The notes under the pieces were generated by a model. It had not been told where the DNA came from. It did not search any database and saw only the letters and a program-made list of their open reading frames with translations. From Candidatus Nomurabacteria bacterium RIFCSPHIGHO2_02_40_30 (lineage in GTDB: Bacteria > Patescibacteriota > Minisyncoccia > Phycocordibacterales > UBA9973): DNA of 64,000 bases. The stretch spans positions 101,566 through 165,565 of the forward strand of contig MFTV01000010.1 of NCBI GenBank assembly GCA_001785445.1. The letters run 5' to 3'. Every line of letters starts with the position of its first letter. Position 1 is the stretch's first letter. Shown piece after piece: positions 45,947 through 61,645 of the stretch. The position numbers and the translations under genes were made by a program.

Positions 45947-46339
45947 ATGGAAAAAATCAAGACATTCTTGGAAAGCGACAAGGGTAAAGACATAATGATA
46001 GTTACCATCGTCATTTTGGTGGGCTTAGGCTCATTTGAGCTAGGTAGACTATCTAAAGAAGGAAATGGCTCGAGGGGAGTCAAAATTGAGTATACGGAGG
46101 ACGTAAGTAATCAGCAAGCAGGGAATGTAATTTCAGCCATAGAATCTTCTAGTCTTTTGCAAAATACTGAAGTAGCAAATTCTGCTGGCAAAAACTTTTT
46201 TGCTTCCAACAGGGGAACTAAATATTATTCCATCGGCTGTTCAGCCGGCAAAACTATTAAGCAAGAAAACAGAGTCTACTTTGCAACAAGTGAAGCTGCC
46301 CAAAGGGCAGGGTATGAGCTTAGTAGCTCGTGTAGGTAA
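45947..46339 (+). CDS. Membrane-anchored protein with Ada-like Zn-binding (methylphosphotriester repair N-domain-like) domain
   Basis: C-terminal 'KYYSIGCSAGKTIKQENRVYFATSEAAQRAGYELSSSC' resembles the Ada N-terminal metal-binding domain pattern. One N-terminal TM helix. Confidence 0.45.
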   Translation: MEKIKTFLESDKGKDIMIVTIVILVGLGSFELGRLSKEGNGSRGVKIEYTEDVSNQQAGNVISAIESSSLLQNTEVANSAGKNFFASNRGTKYYSIGCSAGKTIKQENRVYFATSEAAQRAGYELSSSCR

Positions 46340-46350
46340 ATAGATATCGT

Positions 46351-46438
46351 GTCGCACAATATATGTTTTGGGTCGTTATCTACGACCTAAAACATGGCGC
46401 CCATTGTGCGACATTTCAAATGCTCGCACAATGTGCTT
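46351..46438. other. Highly structured intergenic element between convergent genes, with three copies of CGCACAAT
   Basis: Nested helices gtcgcacaat/attgtgcgac (46351-60 / 46403-12) and atgttttgggtcg/cgacctaaaacat. Then gcaca-a-tgtgc plus TTTTT, a plus-strand terminator-like hairpin. Confidence 0.35.
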
Positions 46439-46452
46439 TTTGGGATTAAAGA

Positions 46453-48348
46453 CTATGAGAAAAGCTTGAGGTCTTTCGTTAGCGCGTCTACTTTGGACTT
46501 AGGGCCAAAGATGAGGAGACCGAGGAAGTCGATATCTTTTTGCGACTTCATTTGAGTTTGCTCGGCAACTTTTTTATCATTTGTGGTTTCAATCATCTCT
46601 CGGGTAAAGTGAGCAATCTCTAAGCCCTCCCCTTGCGCCTTGTCAGAAAGCGCCCAAATGGCATCCGAAGAGTCGGCAGTCTTTATCATAATTGCATGCT
46701 GAATATTTAATTTTATATTTTTGTCATCTTTGGTTTTTATCGAATCAAATTTGAAAAGTTTTTTCTGTGAACGGGCGCCAAAAGCAGCTGATAGATGAGC
46801 TACGGTATTCATTATCTGCCATGGCTCCAGTCCGGCGCCGGAGTTTACTATGGCTGTAGCCACATACATTTCCTTAATTTTATTTTTCTCGTCGTCAATA
46901 GGTTTCATCAGTGGAAATATTTGGGTTTCTCGGATGGGTTTATCCATTAAGAAACTGAAAAGGCGTTCACTGAAGCCGTGGCCAGCGGTAGGAGGCATTC
47001 CGTACTCTAATGCCTCAACGAAGTCATGGTCCGTCATTTGGGCTTCGGTATCCCCTGCTTCACGCAACTTTTCTTGATCTCTAAATCGTTCTAGCTGGTC
47101 TATTGGGTCATTAAGTTCGCTATATCCTTGTCCCACTTCACTTCCAGCAATAATAAAATGAAAACGTTCTGTAACATCTGGATTATCAGGCGAAGACTTT
47201 GATAAAGGAGAAGTAATTTTAGGCTCATTTACCAGAATAGCTGGTCCGCCAATATTTTTACGGCAATGTTTCCATAAAGAATCAATCAAGCGCGCTTTAT
47301 TATCTGCTTCGTAGTCCACGCCTAATTCTTTTAACTTTATTTCGATTTCTTTTTGGTCTGCTTTTTCGATATTGATTTTCAATTGTTTCTCTATTTCTTT
47401 GGTATAATCTATAAGAGGCCACTCTAAAGCAAGGTCAACGTCAAAACCATTTATCTTAAATTTCAGGGTGCCGAAAGTTTCCTGCGCCACGTATCGGTAG
47501 CATTTCTGTAAAAATTTATACATATCTTCATAGTTAGCATAAGCCCAATAAGCTTCACATTGAGTATAGTCTTGCAAATGCTCCGGAGACATGCCTTCGT
47601 TGCGAAAAATTCTGCCGATTTCAAAAGTCTTCGGAATTCCGGCAACCATTAACTTTTTTTGCCAGAGTTCTCCTGCTGATATTCTAAGATAAACATCTAA
47701 GTCCAAAGCATTATGATGCGTTTTAAATGGTGTAGCATCTGCCCCTCCGGTAGTAATCTCTAAAACCGGTGTTTCCACCTCTAGAAAACCATTCTTCAGA
47801 TGAAATTCTCTGACAGCATTCCAAAAGAGAGCTTTTTTCCTTACTATTTCTTTGGCTTCAGGATTAAAAAGGATGTCTAGGTATCTCTGACGAAATCTAG
47901 TCTCGTAATCCTGCAAACCATGCCATTTTTCTGGTAGCGGTTTCAAGCTCTTAGAAAGCATATGCCAGTCTGTGGCCTCAAGAGTCTTCTCCCCTCTTTT
48001 GGTCGTAAAAAAATTTCCTTGAATCTCTACGAAGTCGCCAATATCCACAACTTCATTAAAGAAGTTAAACTTTTCGCCGCCCAAAACATCTTTTTTAAGC
48101 AAGCCCTGAAAAGTTCCGGTGCCGTCGTTTAAAGTTATAAAAATAATAGCGCCTTGTCCGCGTATAGACATAACACGTCCGGCAATCCATTTAATTTCTT
48201 TATTTTTTTCCAGAGTGTCAAAATTTAAAGTAGCCTCATGTAATGCAAGCTCTCTACTTGACTCTGCGGGATATGGATTTACACCTTTACTCTTCAAGAG
48301 CTCAAGTTTTTTTATTCTCGTATCTCTAATTTCATCAATTGAAGACAT
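46453..48348 (-). CDS. lysS: Lysyl-tRNA synthetase (class II) with ~150-aa C-terminal extra domain
   Basis: N-terminal OB anticodon-binding domain, class II motifs, canonical end '...RLFSFLMDKPIRETQIFPLMKP', then an additional ~150 aa. Confidence 0.85.
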   Translation of the reverse strand: MSSIDEIRDTRIKKLELLKSKGVNPYPAESSRELALHEATLNFDTLEKNKEIKWIAGRVMSIRGQGAIIFITLNDGTGTFQGLLKKDVLGGEKFNFFNEVVDIGDFVEIQGNFFTTKRGEKTLEATDWHMLSKSLKPLPEKWHGLQDYETRFRQRYLDILFNPEAKEIVRKKALFWNAVREFHLKNGFLEVETPVLEITTGGADATPFKTHHNALDLDVYLRISAGELWQKKLMVAGIPKTFEIGRIFRNEGMSPEHLQDYTQCEAYWAYANYEDMYKFLQKCYRYVAQETFGTLKFKINGFDVDLALEWPLIDYTKEIEKQLKINIEKADQKEIEIKLKELGVDYEADNKARLIDSLWKHCRKNIGGPAILVNEPKITSPLSKSSPDNPDVTERFHFIIAGSEVGQGYSELNDPIDQLERFRDQEKLREAGDTEAQMTDHDFVEALEYGMPPTAGHGFSERLFSFLMDKPIRETQIFPLMKPIDDEKNKIKEMYVATAIVNSGAGLEPWQIMNTVAHLSAAFGARSQKKLFKFDSIKTKDDKNIKLNIQHAIMIKTADSSDAIWALSDKAQGEGLEIAHFTREMIETTNDKKVAEQTQMKSQKDIDFLGLLIFGPKSKVDALTKDLKLFS

Positions 48349-48357
48349 TTTTAATTT

Positions 48358-48825
48358 TTAGGACACACTTATTATTTTATAATTAACTAGTCCGTTAGGA
48401 GTTTTAAAAGATATTTTATCACCTTTTCTCCTGCCAAAAAGCGCTTCGCCAAACGGAGACCGGTTAGAAATTTTACCTTCGGCCATGCTAGCCTCTTCAG
48501 AGCCTACGATAGTATAAGTTTTTGTTTCCTTACTTCTCTCTTTTTGCACGACTACTTTAGAACCAACCTCTACCACTTCCCCACCTCCGCCACTCACCGT
48601 CTGTGAAGACTGCAAAATTTGTTCTATTTTTGTAATTCTCTCTTCGAGCTTGCCCTGATCTTCGCGAGTCTGATGATATTCCGCATTTTCCGACAAGTCA
48701 CCCAATGATTTCGCGTACTCCAAAGCTTCCAAAATTTCTTTTCTTTTCGGTCCTTTTAATTCTTTCAGCTCTATTTCCAACGCATGCCTTTTCTCTTTAG
48801 TTATATAGTCTCCCGCTTGCTGCAT
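48358..48825 (-). CDS. greA: Transcription elongation factor GreA
   Basis: Motif 'LGDLSENAEYHQTREDQGKLEERI' and FKBP-like C-domain. Confidence 0.85.
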   Translation of the reverse strand: MQQAGDYITKEKRHALEIELKELKGPKRKEILEALEYAKSLGDLSENAEYHQTREDQGKLEERITKIEQILQSSQTVSGGGGEVVEVGSKVVVQKERSKETKTYTIVGSEEASMAEGKISNRSPFGEALFGRRKGDKISFKTPNGLVNYKIISVS

Positions 48826-48862: not shown

Positions 48863-50044
48863 TTAAATTGAGCGTAAAATACCATTTTTGCCTATTAAAA
48901 TTTCACGTGGCAGTTCTCTGCTATTGTAGCGTGAAGCCATTACATAGCCATAAGCACCTGAATTTTTAATAGCCAGAACATCTCCGACCTTTGGTTTGCT
49001 GATCTTTCTGTCTCTGCCGAAAACATCTCCGGATTCACATATATTTCCGGCTACATCAACTTTTATAATTGCTCCTTTAATTTTGTTTGCATTTATGATT
49101 TCGTGATGAGAACCATACATGGCAGGACGAAGTAAATGATTAAAGCCTGTGTTTATTCCTACAAAAGTACGTTTTGGATTTGTTTTTATCTCGGTAACAT
49201 TGGCCAATAAGGTTCCTGCTTCAGCAACCAAGAATCTTCCGGGCTCTAGAATCATATTCAACTCTCGGCCGTATATTTTGGAAAAATTATTCATTTTTCT
49301 TGTCATTTCTTGTCCTAATAATTTTAAATTTAAATTTTTATCTTTCGGTAAATAAGGAATACCTAATCCCCCGCCGAAATCCAACGATTCCAGTTCGGAA
49401 AAATCTTTTGCCGTCTCAAGCAACTTATCGAAGGCTTTTAGTAAAATTTTACTATCCAGAACATTGGAACCAATATGCTGATGCAAGCTGACAATTTGTA
49501 ATTTATATTTTTTCGCCAATTTTTTAGCTTGTGACAAGTGTTCGAGAGGAATTCCAAACTTGCTCATAACTCCTCCGGTAATGACATGGCTATGGTGCCC
49601 AGCACCGATACCTTGATTTATGCGTATACCGATTTTGCCATTTGGATTCAACTTTCCATACAGCTCAATTTGTGACAAAGAATCCAGATTAACTTTAATG
49701 TTATTTTTTATCACAAAAACCATTTCTTCTTCGGTTACCGAACTCGAAGTATATAAAATATCTTTAGATTTAAAACCGACCTTCAGTGCTGAAGTTATTT
49801 CTCCCCTACTCACTGTTTCTATCTTTGCTCCCAAGTGTAGTAATAACTTCAAAATAGAAATATTTGTGTTTGCTTTGCAGGCATAGTGTATATGAAACTT
49901 GTGATATAGCATATTTTTTATTAATTCCAAATACCTTTGCCTGATAACATCAGCTTCGTAAACATATAAAGGTGTGCCAAATTTTTTGGCCAACGTAGTG
50001 GAAGAATACTTTCCAAAATATAATTTATTATTCTTAGTATGCAT
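48863..50044 (-). CDS. lysA: Diaminopimelate decarboxylase (fold-III PLP enzyme)
   Basis: PLP-lysine region 'YACKANTNISILKLL'; the 'GGGLGIP' and 'ESGD' motifs are consistent with alanine-racemase-fold decarboxylases. Sits in a lysine biosynthesis context. Confidence 0.75.
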   Translation of the reverse strand: MHTKNNKLYFGKYSSTTLAKKFGTPLYVYEADVIRQRYLELIKNMLYHKFHIHYACKANTNISILKLLLHLGAKIETVSRGEITSALKVGFKSKDILYTSSSVTEEEMVFVIKNNIKVNLDSLSQIELYGKLNPNGKIGIRINQGIGAGHHSHVITGGVMSKFGIPLEHLSQAKKLAKKYKLQIVSLHQHIGSNVLDSKILLKAFDKLLETAKDFSELESLDFGGGLGIPYLPKDKNLNLKLLGQEMTRKMNNFSKIYGRELNMILEPGRFLVAEAGTLLANVTEIKTNPKRTFVGINTGFNHLLRPAMYGSHHEIINANKIKGAIIKVDVAGNICESGDVFGRDRKISKPKVGDVLAIKNSGAYGYVMASRYNSRELPREILIGKNGILRSI

Positions 50045-50139
50045 ACTGCAAATATATCAGCCTTGTTTGTGAAAGTTAATTTTTTTAACGTTTATGTAAT
50101 AAATTAGACTTTTTGTAAAATCTGTGATATTATTAAACA

Positions 50140-50799
50140 ATGATAAAAATTCAGCCTATTGTAAGGAATATAGTTATGAGTGAGCTCGAAGCCTATGTGG
50201 CATTAACCAACGGCTACATGAATATGAGCAGTTATGCGCACAGAATACGTCCCCTAGTGGAAGAACATGCCAAAAAACAAGTAACCATTACCAGCCTCGT
50301 AGTTTCCTTATCGCGCCTGCGTAAAGAGTTTAAAAAAGAAAAGCCACTTATTCAAGAAGTTGTCATCGCTAATATCACTACCAAGCTGCCGCTGACAGAC
50401 ATTGTGTATGAAAATACTGACAGCATAATTAGCAAACTCGAGTCCTTTCATAAAAAAATTTCTATTTCACGTGAAGATTTTTTCACTACCACTATAAGTA
50501 CCACTGAACTCAATATTATTTGTTCATCGAACATTGCTGGCAAGGTATTAAAACATTTCGGCATCAAGCCAAAGTTCACTGCGCAGAATCTGGCGGCAGT
50601 CGGCATCTCATTCAGTGAAAAACAATTCACTATTCCAAATACACTTTTTTCTTTATATTCCGTCATCGCCCGAGCGCGTATCAACATCATTGAAGTGGTC
50701 TCGACATATACAGAACTAATTTTCATCATCGAAGAAAAAAACTTCAGCCAAACCGTAGCCCTATTTTCCGAACTGCACCGGAAAGTAAACAGAGAATAA
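50140..50799 (+). CDS. Stand-alone ACT-domain protein (aspartokinase regulatory-domain-like), paralog A
   Basis: C-terminal 'PNTLFSLYSVIARARINIIEVVSTYTELIFIIEEKNFSQTVALFSELH' fits the aspartokinase ACT pattern. About 60% identical to the 56572-57237 product. Confidence 0.5.
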   Translation: MIKIQPIVRNIVMSELEAYVALTNGYMNMSSYAHRIRPLVEEHAKKQVTITSLVVSLSRLRKEFKKEKPLIQEVVIANITTKLPLTDIVYENTDSIISKLESFHKKISISREDFFTTTISTTELNIICSSNIAGKVLKHFGIKPKFTAQNLAAVGISFSEKQFTIPNTLFSLYSVIARARINIIEVVSTYTELIFIIEEKNFSQTVALFSELHRKVNRE

Positions 50800-50945
50800 A
50801 ATCTACCATCTCGAACATATGTAAAAGATAGTAGATAGTTGTGAATTTACGCATATGCGTGATTTCACAACAAAAATGTTTAAGTATTACTAATACAATA
50901 GCAACGGCCGTGGTTATTGTGATAATAACAATAATATTAAATTAA

Positions 50946-51740
50946 TTAGACCACTTCCACTATACCGCTGAAAACGGACACGGCGGGGCCGCGCATGATT
51001 ATGTCGCCTTGTTCGTTTTCAGACATATATAATTTTCCGCCCGGTAATTCTATGATGAGTTCTACATCAGCGTTTTTATATTTCCTAGCTGCCGCGTACA
51101 CTGCGCAGGCTCCTGTACCACAGGCAAGAGTCGCCCCGCATCCCCTCTCCCAGACTTTTACTTTAAATTCGTTAGAACTTTTTTGCTCCACAAACTCAAC
51201 ATTTATTTTATTTGGAAAAATTTTATTGTTTTCTATCTTAGGACCCAGTGTAGGTAAGTCATATTTGTCCAAATCTTTTACAAAAGTTATGGCATGTGGG
51301 TTGCCGACAGAAACAAAATTAAAATCGAATCCTTCTAATTTTGTATTTTTATCCGGAAAATCTGTGTGCACAAAAACAGCTTTCCCCATATTTACCGAAA
51401 AAGTATGGTCATCATTATATTTTATTTCTTTTGTACCTGCGCGTGTATCTATTGTAAATTTAGTTTTATTTTTTGAAAAATTGTCTTTCAAAAATTTTGC
51501 TACACAGCGCACACCGTTTCCGCACATCTCGGCTAGTGTTCCATCAGAATTATAATAATTCATAAAGCAGTCCCCTTTTTCTGAAGATTCAACTAAAATA
51601 ACGCCATCACCTCCTATGCCTTTATTTCTGTCACAGAGAAAAATAATTTGCTCTTTTGATAAAACAATTTTCCCATTTATATTATCAATGACTACAAAGT
51701 CGTTCCCCAGTCCATGCATTTTTGTAAAGCCTATATTCAT
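50946..51740 (-). CDS. dapF: Diaminopimelate epimerase
   Basis: Motif 'FTKMHGLGNDFVVID' and two catalytic Cys regions. Confidence 0.85.
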   Translation of the reverse strand: MNIGFTKMHGLGNDFVVIDNINGKIVLSKEQIIFLCDRNKGIGGDGVILVESSEKGDCFMNYYNSDGTLAEMCGNGVRCVAKFLKDNFSKNKTKFTIDTRAGTKEIKYNDDHTFSVNMGKAVFVHTDFPDKNTKLEGFDFNFVSVGNPHAITFVKDLDKYDLPTLGPKIENNKIFPNKINVEFVEQKSSNEFKVKVWERGCGATLACGTGACAVYAAARKYKNADVELIIELPGGKLYMSENEQGDIIMRGPAVSVFSGIVEVV

Positions 51741-52639
51741 ATATGTATTAAAGTTCCTTCAGATTCTAAGTCCCAAAACGGCCTTACTTGCAGAGGAATT
51801 TTTTTCTCTTTTACTTCCCTTAAAGTTTTCGGATGTACCAAGCCAACAGCATTAAACTCCAAATGTTTTTCAAAATCGTCATAGGTTATAAAATCTATTT
51901 TTTGGACATTTTCATTGCCGGCTAGTTTGGGATTTTTGTCCATAACCCCCGGCACATCTTTCCAAAGAACTACTTTGCTCGCATTCATAAGATTGCCCAG
52001 AATCCCCGCAGTGTAGTCGCTACCCTCGCGTCCCAGAGTCGTCATGCCTTCTTCGCAAAAACCGATAAATCCCTCGGTGACAATGTTTTTATGCGTAATA
52101 AATATTTCTTCTTTTATTTGTACTTTTAGATTTTCATTGGTGGCTTTTTTATCAACATTCGCGATATTAAAATTCGAATCTGTCTTGAGGAAATCAGTCG
52201 CATGGACAAGCTTGTTTTTTATACCAACATGAGAAAGGTATTCGCTGGCAACCAAAGAGCTCAATATTTCCCCATAGGGAACAATTTGGTCATAAATAAA
52301 CTTTTTATCTTCGCCTCGCCCTATTAAATACAGTCTCTCTTGCATCTTTTTAAAAAGATCTTCAATTATGCCGAAGGTCACATGCCCCTCGGGAAAAAGA
52401 TCTCGCGCAATTTCCAAATGAAAAGCTTTTAATTCATGCATTATCTTGCTACTTTCATTGGTGTCTCCACTCGCATAATTATGTAATATTTTTTCTAAGT
52501 TGTTTGTGGTCTTGCCAAAAGCGGAAAATACATTCATGGAATTTCCATGAATGTGCTTCTCGAAAGTTTTCGGCAAATGTCTGATGGCTTTAGCACTACT
52601 CATAATTCCGCCACCAAATTTGTTTATAATTAAGGACAT
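51737..52639 (-). CDS. lysC: Aspartokinase, catalytic amino-acid-kinase domain only (no ACT domains)
   Basis: Motifs 'INKFGGGIMSS' and 'LGREGSDYTAG'. Ends '...EGTLIHI' where ACT domains normally begin. Start placed at 52639 (MSLIINKFGG) to avoid overlapping asd. Confidence 0.8.
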   Translation of the reverse strand: MSLIINKFGGGIMSSAKAIRHLPKTFEKHIHGNSMNVFSAFGKTTNNLEKILHNYASGDTNESSKIMHELKAFHLEIARDLFPEGHVTFGIIEDLFKKMQERLYLIGRGEDKKFIYDQIVPYGEILSSLVASEYLSHVGIKNKLVHATDFLKTDSNFNIANVDKKATNENLKVQIKEEIFITHKNIVTEGFIGFCEEGMTTLGREGSDYTAGILGNLMNASKVVLWKDVPGVMDKNPKLAGNENVQKIDFITYDDFEKHLEFNAVGLVHPKTLREVKEKKIPLQVRPFWDLESEGTLIHI

Positions 52640-52643
52640 AATT

Positions 52644-53651
52644 TTATATAAGGTTATTATTACACAAGTACTCGGCAATCTGCACTGCATTCGTGGCAGC
52701 GCCTTTGCGCAGATTGTCCGCCACGATCCACATATTTAGGGTTTTAGGATTTGATTCGTCACGGCGGAGCCTGCCGACAAAAACTTCATCCTTTCCTTCT
52801 GCATATATGGGCATGGGATATTTTAAATTCTGCACATCGTCTACAACCACAACTCCAGGCATTTCGGAAAGTAATGACCTTACTTTTTCCAGATCATATT
52901 CTTCTTTGAACTCCACATTCACTGACTCCGAATGCCCGCCGATAACTGGAATCCGAACAGCAGTGGTAGTTATACATATGCTTTCATCACCTAAAATTTT
53001 TCTGGTTTCATTTTCCATTTTCATTTCTTCTTTGGTGTAGCCGTTTGGAAGAAAAATGTCAACTTGGGGAATTAAATTTAAGTCAATCGGGTAGGCATAC
53101 GCCATCTCACCCTCTACTCCTCTCCTTTCATTCATGAGCTGGTCCACTGCGCCTTTCCCTGTACCGGTAACTGACTGATAGGTGGAGACAACTATTCTTT
53201 TTATTCCAAACTCTTTATGGAGCGGATAAAGCGCGAGAACCAATTGCGTCGTCGAACAATTCGGTTTGGCAATAATTTTGTCTTCTTTGGTTAAAATACT
53301 GCCATTTACCTCAGGTATTATAATTTTTTTAGAAGGATCCAGCCTCCACGCCGAAGAACTATCAATCACTATTGCGCCAGCTTCCACGAAAAATGGAGCC
53401 CACTCCAGAGATACTGCCGAACCAGCGGAAAAAAAAGCGATGTCCGGCTTCCCTGCTAGCGCATCTTCGATGGAGATGATTTTATGCGACACTCCGTTAA
53501 AAGTTATTTCTTTGCCAACTGATTTTTGGCTTGCTATTGGAAGCAACTCTGAAACAGGAAAATTTCTTTCTTCCAAGATTTTTAGTATAGTCCTGCCGAC
53601 AAGACCGGACGCTCCAATTATTGCAACTTTTTTCTTATTATTATTTAGCAT
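52644..53651 (-). CDS. asd: Aspartate-semialdehyde dehydrogenase
   Basis: Motif 'VAIIGASGLVGRTILKIL' and catalytic Cys region 'KPNCSTTQLVLAL'. Confidence 0.85.
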   Translation of the reverse strand: MLNNNKKKVAIIGASGLVGRTILKILEERNFPVSELLPIASQKSVGKEITFNGVSHKIISIEDALAGKPDIAFFSAGSAVSLEWAPFFVEAGAIVIDSSSAWRLDPSKKIIIPEVNGSILTKEDKIIAKPNCSTTQLVLALYPLHKEFGIKRIVVSTYQSVTGTGKGAVDQLMNERRGVEGEMAYAYPIDLNLIPQVDIFLPNGYTKEEMKMENETRKILGDESICITTTAVRIPVIGGHSESVNVEFKEEYDLEKVRSLLSEMPGVVVVDDVQNLKYPMPIYAEGKDEVFVGRLRRDESNPKTLNMWIVADNLRKGAATNAVQIAEYLCNNNLI

Positions 53652-54883
53652 TATAATTTTAAATTCTTTTGTATACTTTTAACCGCTTTTATTATATTTT
53701 CTCTGTGCCCGAAAGCAGTCAAACGCAAATAGCTCTCCCCTTCGGAGCCAAAACCAGAGCCGGGCGTACCCACAACATATGCTTCTTCCAATAATTTGTT
53801 AAAAAACTGCAAAGAACTTAAATTACGCGGAGTTTTAACCCAGATATATGGCGCATGTTCTCCGCCAAAAACTTTCAAGCCAAGTTTCTGTAAAGCTTTC
53901 TTTATGAGCATCGCATTTTTCATATAGTAACCAACTAAATTTTTACTTTCTTTTTGACCGGCAGGTGATAAAACCGCCAAGGCGCCTTCTTGAGATATAT
54001 TAGACGCTCCATTGAACATAGTGCCCTGCCGTCTGCTCCACAAACCGTTAACTATGCCTTTTTTTGTCTTTTCAATAACTAAATCCATCGGCACTACCGT
54101 CCACCCTAATCGCACACCCGTAAACCCCGCCCACTTGGAAAAACTATTAACTTCTATGGCGCACTTTTTGGCTCCGGGTATTTCGTAGATGCTTTTTGGT
54201 AAAGATTTGTTTGATATGTATTCGACGTAAGTGGCATCGAAAATTATTACCGCTTTGTTCTTTAGAGCATAATCTACAAAAGCTTTTAATTGCTTTCTTG
54301 TAGCGGCAGAGCCGGTAGGGTTATTGGGATTACAAAGATAAATTATATCCACTTTTTGTTTTGGAGGGTTTGGCACAAAATTATTTTTTTCATTACATGC
54401 CATATACACCAGGCCTTGATATTTTCCGTTGACGCATTTTCCAGTCCTACCTGATATAACCGCAGTATCTAAATATGCCGGATACACAGGGTCCGAAATT
54501 GCTACGACATTATTCAAACTAAATATTGACTGTATATTTGCCAAGTCTGTTTTGGCTCCATCATTGATAAAAATTTCTTGCATCCTCAAGCTAATGTTTC
54601 TTTTTTTATAAAAATTCACCAACGCAGTTAATAGTCTCAAATTCCCCTCTTTGCCTTCGGCGTCTTGGTAGCCTATATATGTTTTAACGTTCCCAAGCCT
54701 TTTTACTCCTTCGTGCAATCCTTTAATGACGGTAGGAGTTAAAGGCTCTGTGGTATCACCAACTCCGAGCTTTAGAACCTCTACACTGGGATTTTTTTTC
54801 ATAAACTCCTGCGTCAGTTTGGAAACCTCGCCAAATAAATATCCTTTTTGCAATTTATTGTAATTTTTATTAATGGTGGCCAT
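53651..54883 (-). CDS. dapL: LL-diaminopimelate aminotransferase
   Basis: Class I aminotransferase with N-terminal 'KLQKGYLFGEV', characteristic of DapL. PLP-lysine region 'SFSKWAGFTGVRLGW'. Confidence 0.7.
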   Translation of the reverse strand: MATINKNYNKLQKGYLFGEVSKLTQEFMKKNPSVEVLKLGVGDTTEPLTPTVIKGLHEGVKRLGNVKTYIGYQDAEGKEGNLRLLTALVNFYKKRNISLRMQEIFINDGAKTDLANIQSIFSLNNVVAISDPVYPAYLDTAVISGRTGKCVNGKYQGLVYMACNEKNNFVPNPPKQKVDIIYLCNPNNPTGSAATRKQLKAFVDYALKNKAVIIFDATYVEYISNKSLPKSIYEIPGAKKCAIEVNSFSKWAGFTGVRLGWTVVPMDLVIEKTKKGIVNGLWSRRQGTMFNGASNISQEGALAVLSPAGQKESKNLVGYYMKNAMLIKKALQKLGLKVFGGEHAPYIWVKTPRNLSSLQFFNKLLEEAYVVGTPGSGFGSEGESYLRLTAFGHRENIIKAVKSIQKNLKL

Positions 54884-54885
54884 TA

Positions 54886-55797
54886 TTATTTTATCAACTT
54901 TAACTCTTTCAAGACTTTCTCTATGATAGGCCTATTTTTTTCTTCGATAAAAGTTAACGGCAATCTGAAACTTTCTGTGATAAGCCCCATTTGGGCCAGA
55001 GCCGTCTTTACCGGAATGGGATTAGACTCGATAAAGTTAACATTCATCAAGTCAAGAAGTTTATAGTGTAATTTCTTTGCTTCTTCTAATTTACCTTTGA
55101 GAGCGCAGTGAATCATGTCAGAAAATAATTTTGGGGTCTCGTTACAGACCACAGAAATACAGCCTTTGCCTCCAAGAGCAATAAGAGGCAATGCCAAGGC
55201 ATCATCACCAGATAGAACGACAAAGTTTTTAAGATTTTTGGAACCGTTTTTTGCTTCGTTTATAATTTCCATCATCTGGTTTAATGAACCGGAGGCTTCT
55301 TTGACTGCTACAACTTTTGGCACTTCTCGCGCTATTTTGATAATAGCTCCCGGCTGTATATTAGAACCGGTTCTCCCGGGAACATTGTAAATAATGATAG
55401 GCAGATTCACAGCTTTTGAGATTGCTTTAAAGTGAAGCACCAGACCGGCAGGAGTCGGCTTGTTGTAGTAAGGCGTTACGTGAAGCAGACCGTCCACTCC
55501 GGCGGACTTGGCCAGCTTAGAAAAGTGAATCGCTTTTTTAGTATCATTGGAACCGGCTCCGGCAATGACCGGAATTCTTCCTGCAACTTTTTTTACTACT
55601 GTTTTTACAACAGTAATATATTCTTCATCGTTGAGCGTAGCTGCTTCTCCAGTGGAGCCGGCAACCACAATGCCATCCACTCCGCCTTTGAGCTGATATT
55701 CAACCAACTTCTCCAATGCCGGTAAATCCAAATCTCCATTTTTCTTAAATGGTGTGACTATTGCCGGAATTGAGCCAAAAAATTTTATTTTTTTCAT
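54886..55797 (-). CDS. dapA: 4-hydroxy-tetrahydrodipicolinate synthase
   Basis: Motif 'GSIPAIVTPF' and Schiff-base Lys region. Start placed at MKKIKFFG (55797), giving no overlap with dapB. Confidence 0.85.
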   Translation of the reverse strand: MKKIKFFGSIPAIVTPFKKNGDLDLPALEKLVEYQLKGGVDGIVVAGSTGEAATLNDEEYITVVKTVVKKVAGRIPVIAGAGSNDTKKAIHFSKLAKSAGVDGLLHVTPYYNKPTPAGLVLHFKAISKAVNLPIIIYNVPGRTGSNIQPGAIIKIAREVPKVVAVKEASGSLNQMMEIINEAKNGSKNLKNFVVLSGDDALALPLIALGGKGCISVVCNETPKLFSDMIHCALKGKLEEAKKLHYKLLDLMNVNFIESNPIPVKTALAQMGLITESFRLPLTFIEEKNRPIIEKVLKELKLIK

Positions 55798-55798
55798 T

Positions 55799-56476
55799 TT
55801 ATATTTTGAATAAATGTTCAAAAGGATACATCCCTTTTTTGTTACTAATAAATTTGGTAGCTAATAATGCCCCTTTGGCAAATCCCATTCTACTGTATGC
55901 TTGATGAGAAAATGTGATGCCATCAGCGACGCTGTCGAACACCACTTCGTGGAAACCTGGGTTTCTGCCCGCACGAATTGAAGTAAAGTTTAATCCATTG
56001 ACTTTGCTCGCAATTTTCAAGGCAGTACCGGAAGGACTGTCGAGCTTGGCTTTGTGGTGAACTTCCAGCCCATACACATCATAATCCGGAAATTTAGCAA
56101 AAAGCGAAGAGGCAAAATCCATTATCTTGAAAAATATATTTACTCCCACCGAAAAATTCGGACTGTAGACTAAACCTATTTTATTTTTGCTGACTAATTT
56201 TTTTACGGTATCCATTTTGTCATACCACCCAGTGGTGCCTATGACCATATTCACGCCGAGCTTTCCTACTTGCTCTATATTCTTTATAACCACATCCGGT
56301 GAAGTAAAGTCTATGGCAACATCTGCTTTTTTAATACCTTCTACGTCCAGCTTGTCATTTATATTTTTATAACTCACTGAAACCACTTCAAAATCTCGAG
56401 AATCTTCACATAGAGCATTCACTTCTTTACCCATTTTTCCAAAGCCAATTAAGGCAATTTTTATTCTACTTTTCAT
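55799..56476 (-). CDS. dapB: 4-hydroxy-tetrahydrodipicolinate reductase
   Basis: Motif 'IKIALIGFGKMGKEV' and 'EVHHKAKLDSPSGTA'. Confidence 0.8.
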   Translation of the reverse strand: MKSRIKIALIGFGKMGKEVNALCEDSRDFEVVSVSYKNINDKLDVEGIKKADVAIDFTSPDVVIKNIEQVGKLGVNMVIGTTGWYDKMDTVKKLVSKNKIGLVYSPNFSVGVNIFFKIMDFASSLFAKFPDYDVYGLEVHHKAKLDSPSGTALKIASKVNGLNFTSIRAGRNPGFHEVVFDSVADGITFSHQAYSRMGFAKGALLATKFISNKKGMYPFEHLFKI

Positions 56477-61420: not shown

Positions 61421-61448
61421 TTGACAGGTTTAGATAAAAGCATAAACT
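61421..61448 (+). promoter_or_regulatory. Putative sigma70 promoter for the cobalamin-riboswitch operon
   Basis: TTGACA at 61421-61426, 16-nt spacer, TAAACT at 61443-61448. Confidence 0.4.
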
Positions 61449-61464
61449 TAGTATGTTCCTTTAA

Positions 61465-61645
61465 TAATTTAAAAGAAGTGATTGGGGAAACTGGTTAGAT
61501 TCCAGTACAGTGCCGCTACGGTAAGCCCACGACTTTGTGTCGGGGACAAGTCCGATTACCAATCATTTTTGTTTTTCCCGAGCAGGATATCCTCTTTCGT
61601 TTTTTTACGAAAAAGACTGTAAATTCTGCCCGCAGCAGGATTTTT
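61465..61645 (+). ncRNA. Cobalamin (B12) riboswitch
   Basis: Core 'GGGGAAACTGGTTAGATTCCAGTACAGTGCCGCTACGGTAAGC' matches the cobalamin riboswitch consensus. 'GACAAGTCCGATTACC' is a B12-box-like element. Sits in the 5' leader of a DUF4430 gene; the AGGA RBS is 10 nt before the ATG. Confidence 0.6.

Follow-up and report, generated by a model that had tools for sequence, protein, structure and literature searches.

Candidatus Nomurabacteria bacterium RIFCSPHIGHO2_02_40_30 encodes, in the 64-kb stretch of contig MFTV01000010.1 analysed here (the window), a lysyl-tRNA synthetase (LysRS) whose lysS reading frame continues well beyond the end of the synthetase core. We identify the extension as a DUF2000 domain with the fold of peptidyl-tRNA hydrolase 2 (Pth2), describe its distribution among bacteria of the candidate phyla radiation (CPR) and DPANN archaea, and weigh the roles that such a domain may have on this synthetase. 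Coordinates are positions in the window and residue numbers are those of the 631-amino-acid (aa) window protein. The gene is one uninterrupted open reading frame (ORF) at 46453-48348 on the minus strand, with 631 codons plus a stop and zero internal stops. Its parts, and the gene directly upstream, are as follows.

46453..48348, minus strand: lysS-DUF2000 fusion gene (ORF, Pfam, NCBIfam and GenBank identity)
47959..48189, minus strand: OB-fold anticodon-binding domain, residues 54-130 (PF01336, tRNA_anti-codon, E 2.3e-14)
46906..47907, minus strand: class II (D/K/N) catalytic core, residues 148-481 (PF00152, tRNA-synt_2, E 7.9e-62)
46867..46905, minus strand: Lys/Glu-rich flexible linker, residues 482-494, KPIDDEKNKIKEM (low predicted local distance difference test score, pLDDT)
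46456..46866, minus strand: DUF2000 domain with the Pth2 fold, residues 495-631 (Pfam and predicted structure)
46795..46809, minus strand: codons of Asn514...His518 at the N-terminus of helix 1 (conservation and hhalign)
46576..46608, minus strand: codons of Phe581-Thr-Arg-Glu-Met585...Asp591, 'FTREMIETTND' (conservation and alignment)
48358..48825, minus strand: greA, directly upstream of lysS across a 9-nt gap (Pfam)

The N-terminal part of the product is predicted to be a functional class II LysRS of the bacterial type. Residues 6-483 exceed the curated cut-offs of both TIGR00499 lysS_bact (444.3 versus 427.6 bits, NCBIfam) and PRK00484 (494.3 versus 468 bits), and the class II motif arginines are intact, with R249-N-E-G and R462 invariant across 47 fused homologues. 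The PF00152 match stops at residue 481, at '...IFPLM', which is where a sequence-only reading had placed the end of the core ('...IFPLMKP'); the extension of about 150 residues that it assigned to 46453-46905 equals residues 482-631 plus the stop codon, all after this motif. Among homologues the linker at the start of the extension differs in both length and sequence. GenBank entries from Candidatus Nomurabacteria, among them KKR02198.1 and KKR21013.1, annotate as lysine--tRNA ligase a protein 100% identical to that of the window, and the 631-aa sequence recurs unchanged on 74 contigs. When 185,579 species genomes were scanned, a relative turned up in at least 141 GTDB species, a count limited by the search pattern; 80 loci from species-representative genomes were kept, each covered for 10 kb on either side of the match. 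In 78 of these 80 loci DUF2000 and a class II LysRS core share one reading frame, so that LysS relatives in other genomes do carry the same extension. The continuous ORF, the identical GenBank protein on its 74 contigs and the in-frame loci together rule out a missed stop codon or an assembly artefact, against which the earlier reading had cautioned.

The extension is a DUF2000 domain with the Pth2 fold. PF09391 (DUF2000) matches the full protein at residues 506-630 with 73 bits and the isolated domain with 77.3 bits (E 1.3e-21, model positions 10-132 of 133), against a Pfam gathering cut-off of 25. An AlphaFold2 model of residues 477-631 (mean pLDDT 85) contains a four-stranded sheet with helices and an extra beta-hairpin at 535-547. 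In the full-length model (pLDDT 82, predicted TM-score 0.64), residues 479-490 fall below pLDDT 50, which indicates that the domain is an independently folding unit on a flexible tether of about 12 residues. The best Foldseek match in the PDB was Atu0240 (2GAX; E 9e-10, TM-scores 0.72/0.81), and the remaining matches were only Pth2 enzymes, at E values of about 2e-5 (1Q7S, 3ERJ, 2ZV3, 1WN2, 1XTY and 1RLK). At the level of sequence the relationship with Pth2 is visible solely by profile-profile comparison: hhalign aligned the DUF2000 profile with five solved Pth2 sequences over 111 columns (79% probability, E 1.5e-5). A 32-sequence DUF2000 profile found 2GAX in the PDB at E 4e-22; the profile HMM search of the PDB retrieved zero Pth2 chains, the single domain sequence gave only noise there, and the Pfam scan gave no match of PF01981 (PTH2) to the window protein at E<=1. 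The loose PTH2/DUF2000-like layout noticed from the letters alone has thereby been borne out by family match, structural neighbours and profile homology, the region proving to be an ordered Pth2 fold rather than an unrelated or disordered one. The other half of that comparison, with known editing domains, came out negative: the domain has no sequence or fold similarity to AlaX/tRNA_SAD, B3_4, YbaK/INS, CP1 or DTD.

Atu0240 of Agrobacterium tumefaciens, the structural-genomics representative of PF09391, has the same fold as the window domain. It is a free-standing protein of 135 aa with no assigned function, whereas the window copy is covalently tethered to LysRS, and the two are only 17-19% identical. 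The Pth2 family (PF01981; archaeal 1WN2, 1XTY, 2ZV3, 3ERJ and 1RLK, and human PTRH2/Bit1 1Q7S) shares the alpha/beta fold, to which DUF2000 adds a beta-hairpin and a helix; Pth2 is likewise a free-standing enzyme whereas DUF2000 is here part of a synthetase.

Fused genes were found across a broad range of lineages. The 80 loci carry the labels Paceibacterota, Nomura-, Zambryski-, Doudna-, Peregrini-, Gracili- and Moranbacteria, 'Saccharibacteria' and others, and 17 are labelled archaeal (Woese-, Nano- and Aenigmarchaeota, generic archaeal metagenome-assembled genomes and the complete chromosome CP060218.1; all labels as deposited). These archaeal-labelled loci (L010, L013, L017, L024 on CP060218.1, L028, L030, L032, L035, L042, L046, L050, L052, L054, L058, L068, L074 and L078) encode a bacterial-type class II LysRS with an in-frame DUF2000 domain 50-57% identical to that of the window, a pattern which suggests that the whole fused gene may have been transferred between CPR and DPANN. 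In a library of representatives of 50%-identity clusters we found 118 DUF2000 relatives of the window domain, many of them LysRS fusions of 600-700 aa; DUF2000 was fused to LysRS in dozens of these clusters and to no other aminoacyl-tRNA synthetase.

The domain is maintained by selection and is also mobile. Nonsynonymous divergence in the domain-coding region (pN 0.14-0.19), set against a saturated synonymous divergence (pS) of about 0.8, shows that it is under purifying selection. We rejected vertical co-inheritance of core and domain, since their identities are uncorrelated (r = -0.17 across 52 fused homologues) and sliding-window comparison shows that lysS genes are mosaic. For example, core and domain identities are 86% and 49% for P0162 but 56% and 76% for P0186. 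The G+C content of third codon positions is also higher in the domain-coding part (0.45) than in the core (0.34). These observations, together with the unfused state of closely related cores described below, indicate that DUF2000 moves like a cassette, being acquired, lost or exchanged among lysS genes through recombination. Such behaviour fits the shuffling of synthetase domains noted for CPR lineages (PMC5370408, PMC9437257). In a set of Paceibacteria lysS genes (P0161, P0162, P0163, P0165 and P0186), the anticodon-binding domain, the core and DUF2000 each have different nearest relatives, which indicates frequent intragenic recombination in these related genes.

Several longer architectures add a further module to the same polypeptide. 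LysRS-DUF2000-AlaXM occurs in L054 (8151-10790, 880 aa) and P0068, with 149 bits to the AlaXM model, and LysRS-B3_4-DUF2000 occurs in P0093 (906 aa). LysRS-DUF2000-HDIG, of about 840 aa, occurs in L008 (8555-11074), L013 (8561-11059), L045 (8519-11077), L031 (9599-11107), P0048 and P0050; its HDIG subtype is TIGR00295-like and also matches the HD part of the archaeal tRNA methyltransferase (Trm56) model PRK12703. AlaX and B3/B4 are established aminoacyl-tRNA editing folds. The AlaX/tRNA_SAD, PheRS B3/B4 and YbaK/INS editing modules provide, as appended or neighbouring domains, hydrolytic proofreading of the acylated 3' end of the kind that we propose below, and they occur on the same polypeptide as DUF2000 or beside a DUF2000 gene; they differ from it in sequence and fold, and hydrolysis by DUF2000 is a proposal only. 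LysRS has served as a platform for other additions, of differing logic, none of which is a Pth2-fold domain: mycobacterial LysX, an MprF-LysRS, uses Lys-tRNA for lipid lysinylation, and Microgenomates LysRS carries a C-terminal PheRS-B2-like OB domain, B2 being an RNA-binding OB fold. One further protein, P0044 (238 aa), joins a MutL/HATPase N-terminus, a DUF2000 fragment and the BRCT end of a ligase; assembly probably made this chimera.

CPR and other small-genome lineages also have a stand-alone subfamily of DUF2000, about 140 aa long, and we examined ten of its loci. In the saccharimonadal locus L091 (2159-5514), genes for a non-discriminating aspartyl-tRNA synthetase (ND-AspRS), a GNAT protein, DUF2000, a second GNAT protein and a YbaK-type deacylase are co-directional, and DUF2000 overlaps the preceding GNAT gene by 8 nt; this cluster could be an uncharacterized module for the acetylation and deacylation of aminoacyl-tRNA. 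DUF2000 is followed by a GNAT gene in L092, has a TIGR00295-type HDIG gene directly upstream and gatCA nearby in L093, and lies 3 kb from ND-AspRS in L094, 2.8 kb from a LysRS-like gene (715 aa) in L099 and 1.5 kb from tgt in L098; in L095 it is overlapped by dapF, and the three further contexts were uninformative. A class IIb synthetase thus lies within 3 kb in three of the ten loci, as compared with a rough chance estimate of about 2% per locus. GNAT toxins acetylate aminoacyl-tRNA, and Pth reverses this acetylation; the GNAT neighbours raise the idea that N-acetyl-aminoacyl-tRNA may be a substrate. Taken together, the sister architectures and stand-alone neighbourhoods point to chemistry at the acylated 3' end of tRNA.

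Conservation across 107 DUF2000 domains, comparing LysRS-fused with stand-alone copies, outlines a putative active or binding site. Asn514 is conserved in 100% of both sets, His518 in 99% of fused and 97% of stand-alone domains, Met585 in 100% and 93%, and Asp591 in 99% and 76%; Phe581, Trp510, Asp541, Gly615 and Thr624 are further conserved positions, and the family-wide residues N514, H518, M585, D591, G615 and T624 are all present in the window protein. By hhalign, His518 falls on the His that is invariant in helix 1 of Pth2, and in the alignment the 'FTREM...D' element occupies the position of the Pth2 'DAGxT' catalytic loop. By the predicted secondary structure the conserved residues appear to sit on the loop between strand 1 and helix 1, at the N-terminus of helix 1 and on the loop after strand 4, elements which seem to be those that form the Pth2 active site. 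Asn514...His518 make up the near-invariant centre of the putative site, with 'FTREM...D' as second conserved element. The Asn/His/Met/Asp set resembles, as a lead, residues of bacterial Pth1, which is unrelated to Pth2 and uses Asn10, His20 and Asp93 (PMC4929431), or an Asn/His/Asn/Met set (PMC11994314). DUF2000 domains are not basic (mean isoelectric point about 6.8), which argues against a non-specific RNA-binding appendage.

We propose that DUF2000 on LysRS acts in cis as a hydrolase of tRNA(Lys) acylated at its CCA end, or at the least binds that acylated end, an assignment to which we give roughly an even chance. In this scheme the acylated CCA-3' end would swing, after productive charging or in place of it, into a pocket lined by the loop between strand 1 and helix 1, the helix-1 N-terminus (Trp510, Asn514 and His518) and the 'FTREM...D' loop (Met585 and Asp591). 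There a wrong acyl group, whether a non-cognate amino acid that LysRS had attached or a moiety that is N-blocked or peptidyl, would be hydrolysed, with His518 as candidate general base aided by Asn514 and Asp591, and the freed tRNA(Lys) could be recharged by the same enzyme. This reading draws on the Pth2 fold, the conserved polar site, the LysRS-specific fusion, the co-fusions with editing domains, the neighbours of stand-alone copies, purifying selection and the flexible tether. Flexible tethers also occur in other cis-editing and appended synthetase modules. The data establish the identity, fold, conservation, selection, distribution and modularity of the domain and its association with other aminoacyl-tRNA deacylase domains; binding of the tRNA 3' end, hydrolytic activity and substrate are each something we infer, in line with the cis-acting deacylase, editing or hydrolase role raised by the sequence-only reading and with support from the co-fusions and neighbourhoods. 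As for the restriction to lysine, Jakubowski's work reportedly shows that E. coli LysRS mischarges several amino acids and has no post-transfer site, which would give one rationale. Another is offered by the starvation of E. coli pth mutants for Lys-tRNA(Lys): according to PMC11994314, citing Heurgue-Hamard 1996, their growth is limited by tRNA(Lys) sequestered as peptidyl-tRNA, which would be a reason to have a Lys-specific recycling module.

A number of observations weigh against the hydrolase proposal. The catalytic pair of Pth2 is missing: Lys18 (GKGK loop) and Asp86 (DAGxT loop) of the Sulfolobus solfataricus enzyme are invariant in the five solved Pth2 and were reportedly found to be catalytic there by Fromant et al. 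in 2005, yet by hhalign they align with Gln511 and approximately Arg583 of the window protein (with low confidence around the Asp). The domain is therefore not simply a Pth2, and any chemistry must differ from that of Pth2. Atu0240 has Phe at the position of His518, as compared with His in about 97% of family members. The closest LysRS cores to that of the window (81-85% identity) are proteins of 484-487 aa without DUF2000, and in one unfused close relative greA-lysS is followed by no DUF2000 gene next to lysS, so that the domain is dispensable for LysRS function. The L043 genome also encodes a homologue of Pth1 (tblastn E 5e-21), 8 kb away from its LysRS-DUF2000 gene, from which it follows that the module is not merely a substitute for Pth1. 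The only non-LysRS fusion partner found was a fatty-acid desaturase (P0155, 568 aa). On plasmids of nine proteobacterial and actinobacterial genera, stand-alone DUF2000 adjoins an AraC-family regulator in seven of nine cases and a LysE-family, DMT or MFS transporter in five of nine, not tRNA genes. Finally, we found no biochemical study of any DUF2000 protein in the literature.

These plasmid contexts point to amino-acid or analogue homeostasis rather than to tRNA directly, and they bear on the view that the domain is a small-molecule enzyme or sensor that does not act on tRNA. The domain would then bind or hydrolyse a metabolite related to lysine or adenylate, for instance a non-cognate aminoacyl-adenylate, diadenosine tetraphosphate (Ap4A) produced by LysRS, or the ester or analogue of a basic amino acid; or else amino-acid sensing by the domain would modulate LysRS. 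HDIG and NUDIX families both include Ap4A hydrolases, and HDIG phosphohydrolases are fused or adjacent to DUF2000, with NUDIX hydrolases nearby; the overlap with dapF in L095 and the desaturase fusion also sit well with a metabolite. We nevertheless consider this explanation unlikely: the only fold relatives are enzymes whose substrate is the acylated 3' adenosine of tRNA; AlaXM and B3_4, fused to the same chains, and YbaK, encoded nearby, all deacylate aminoacyl-tRNA; and the tRNA methyltransferase match of the HDIG subtype points to tRNA. In free-living bacteria the stand-alone gene nearly always has an AraC-family regulator beside it, and frequently a LysE-family or other small-molecule transporter; this is a conserved three-gene module, of which we found no description in the literature searched. 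Plasmid loci L083-L086 and L088-L090 come from Pantoea, Klebsiella, Vibrio, Streptomyces, Acidiphilium, Acinetobacter and Alteromonas.

Alternatively, the domain may be a degenerate Pth2 fold that handles tRNA without catalysis, binding tRNA(Lys), whether charged with lysine or not, at its acceptor end and thereby raising tRNA affinity, shielding the ester bond or passing the product to another factor. The absence of the Pth2 catalytic pair and the dispensability of the domain in close relatives would both be expected of such a role, as would the presence of a genuine editing domain (AlaXM or B3_4) beside DUF2000, as if DUF2000 alone gave no hydrolysis. Set against this, near-invariant Asn, His, Met and Asp in fused and stand-alone copies look like a catalytic set rather than a docking surface, the neutral to slightly acidic isoelectric point is unlike that of typical appended tRNA-binding domains, and stand-alone copies are widespread in organisms with an ordinary LysRS. 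On balance we hold a non-catalytic role to be rather improbable.

A third view, that the fused domain is the sole peptidyl-tRNA hydrolase of these reduced genomes, has in its favour the Pth2 fold and the tRNA(Lys) starvation of pth mutants (PMC11994314); the absence of a Pth1 gene from the 64-kb window, a small part of the genome, is uninformative. It is very improbable given the Pth1 homologue near the fused lysS of L043, on which ground we rejected simple replacement of Pth1, the very close relatives whose LysRS lacks DUF2000 and the missing Pth2 catalytic residues. Least of all do we credit an artefact of annotation or assembly (an overlooked stop codon, a frameshift, or a chimeric contig in which lysS became joined to an independent DUF2000 gene), which can be dismissed with near certainty: certain 119-aa database entries named 'DUF2000 family protein' resemble separate genes, but the one examined (in L081) arises from an N-run scaffold gap inside a fused lysS and was rejected as evidence of a split gene, the ORF is continuous, the identical protein recurs on 74 contigs, and the junction is in frame in 78 of the 80 loci from independent assemblies. 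The 119-aa proteins, annotated either as 'DUF2000 family protein' or as 'lysyl-tRNA synthetase', begin at 'MNT(I/V)AHL' and look like gene-calling artefacts; the examined one (P0032, L081:122-2100) follows the N-run.

With regard to novelty, public databases already list both the protein and its Pfam architecture, and an appended quality-control module on a synthetase is of a known kind, of which a Pth2-fold DUF2000 on LysRS is an undescribed variant. We know of no post-transfer editing domain in class II LysRS; its known proofreading is the pre-transfer cyclization of homocysteine, homoserine and ornithine. Our search of 8 million full texts found nothing on DUF2000, PF09391, Atu0240/2GAX or a LysRS fusion in CPR or DPANN, and PMC6514570 mentions neither the domain nor the fusion. 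The identification of the domain is solid and its distribution striking, whereas its function is what we infer. More broadly, and with confidence that stops short of an even chance, we suggest that DUF2000 may be an unrecognized class of acyl-tRNA hydrolase, in which the Pth2 scaffold carries another catalytic set (Asn/His/Met/Asp). It would then be the first post-transfer proofreading or recycling site for class II LysRS, clearing mischarged, N-acetylated or peptidyl-tRNA(Lys) in cis and spread as a recombining cassette across CPR and DPANN. A conserved Pth2-fold module on the LysRS of at least 141 CPR and DPANN species would add a new element of translational quality control, whether it edits mischarged tRNA or recycles blocked tRNA, in organisms with minimal genomes and few tRNA gene copies, and would give a function to a Pfam DUF for which a structure has been public since 2006. 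If the domain is instead non-catalytic or acts on a metabolite, the fusion still links DUF2000 to lysine and LysRS biology, a link not found in the literature searched.

Around the gene, the pairing of greA with lysS is conserved: greA adjoins lysS in 51 of the 80 fused loci and in one unfused relative, with no archaeal-labelled loci among the greA-adjacent loci listed; in the window the two genes are probably co-transcribed. Directly upstream of greA-lysS lies a complete DapL-type lysine pathway cluster (48863-56476, minus strand), composed of the following genes.

55799-56476, minus strand: dapB
54886-55821, minus strand: dapA
53651-54883, minus strand: aminotransferase
52644-53651, minus strand: asd
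51737-52690, minus strand: aspartokinase
50946-51740, minus strand: dapF
48863-50044, minus strand: lysA

We rejected the idea that fused lysS generally lies beside lysine biosynthesis genes, since the cluster was found in none of the 80 other fused loci, which gave only isolated single asd and dapL matches. One close relative whose LysRS is unfused has ftsA/ftsZ directly beside greA, where the window has the lysine cluster.

Downstream, lysS converges on a 130-aa ORF (45947-46339, plus strand) whose product has a hydrophobic segment at its N-terminus and, at its C-terminus, a zinc-binding motif of the Ada type (PF02805, E 1.2e-5). The 113-nt spacer between them (46340-46452) contains nested inverted repeats and one direct repeat.

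46350-46360/46403-46413: inverted repeat
46363-46376/46382-46395: inverted repeat
46399-46411/46424-46436: inverted repeat
46352 and 46424: two copies of a 21-nt direct repeat

A scan for intrinsic terminators downstream of lysS found no canonical terminator; the spacer may terminate transcription from both sides or form a small structured element. Elsewhere in the window, a match to the cobalamin riboswitch (RF00174, 36.6 versus 31.5 bits) lies at 61437-61581 on the plus strand, just downstream of a thioredoxin-reductase-like gene.

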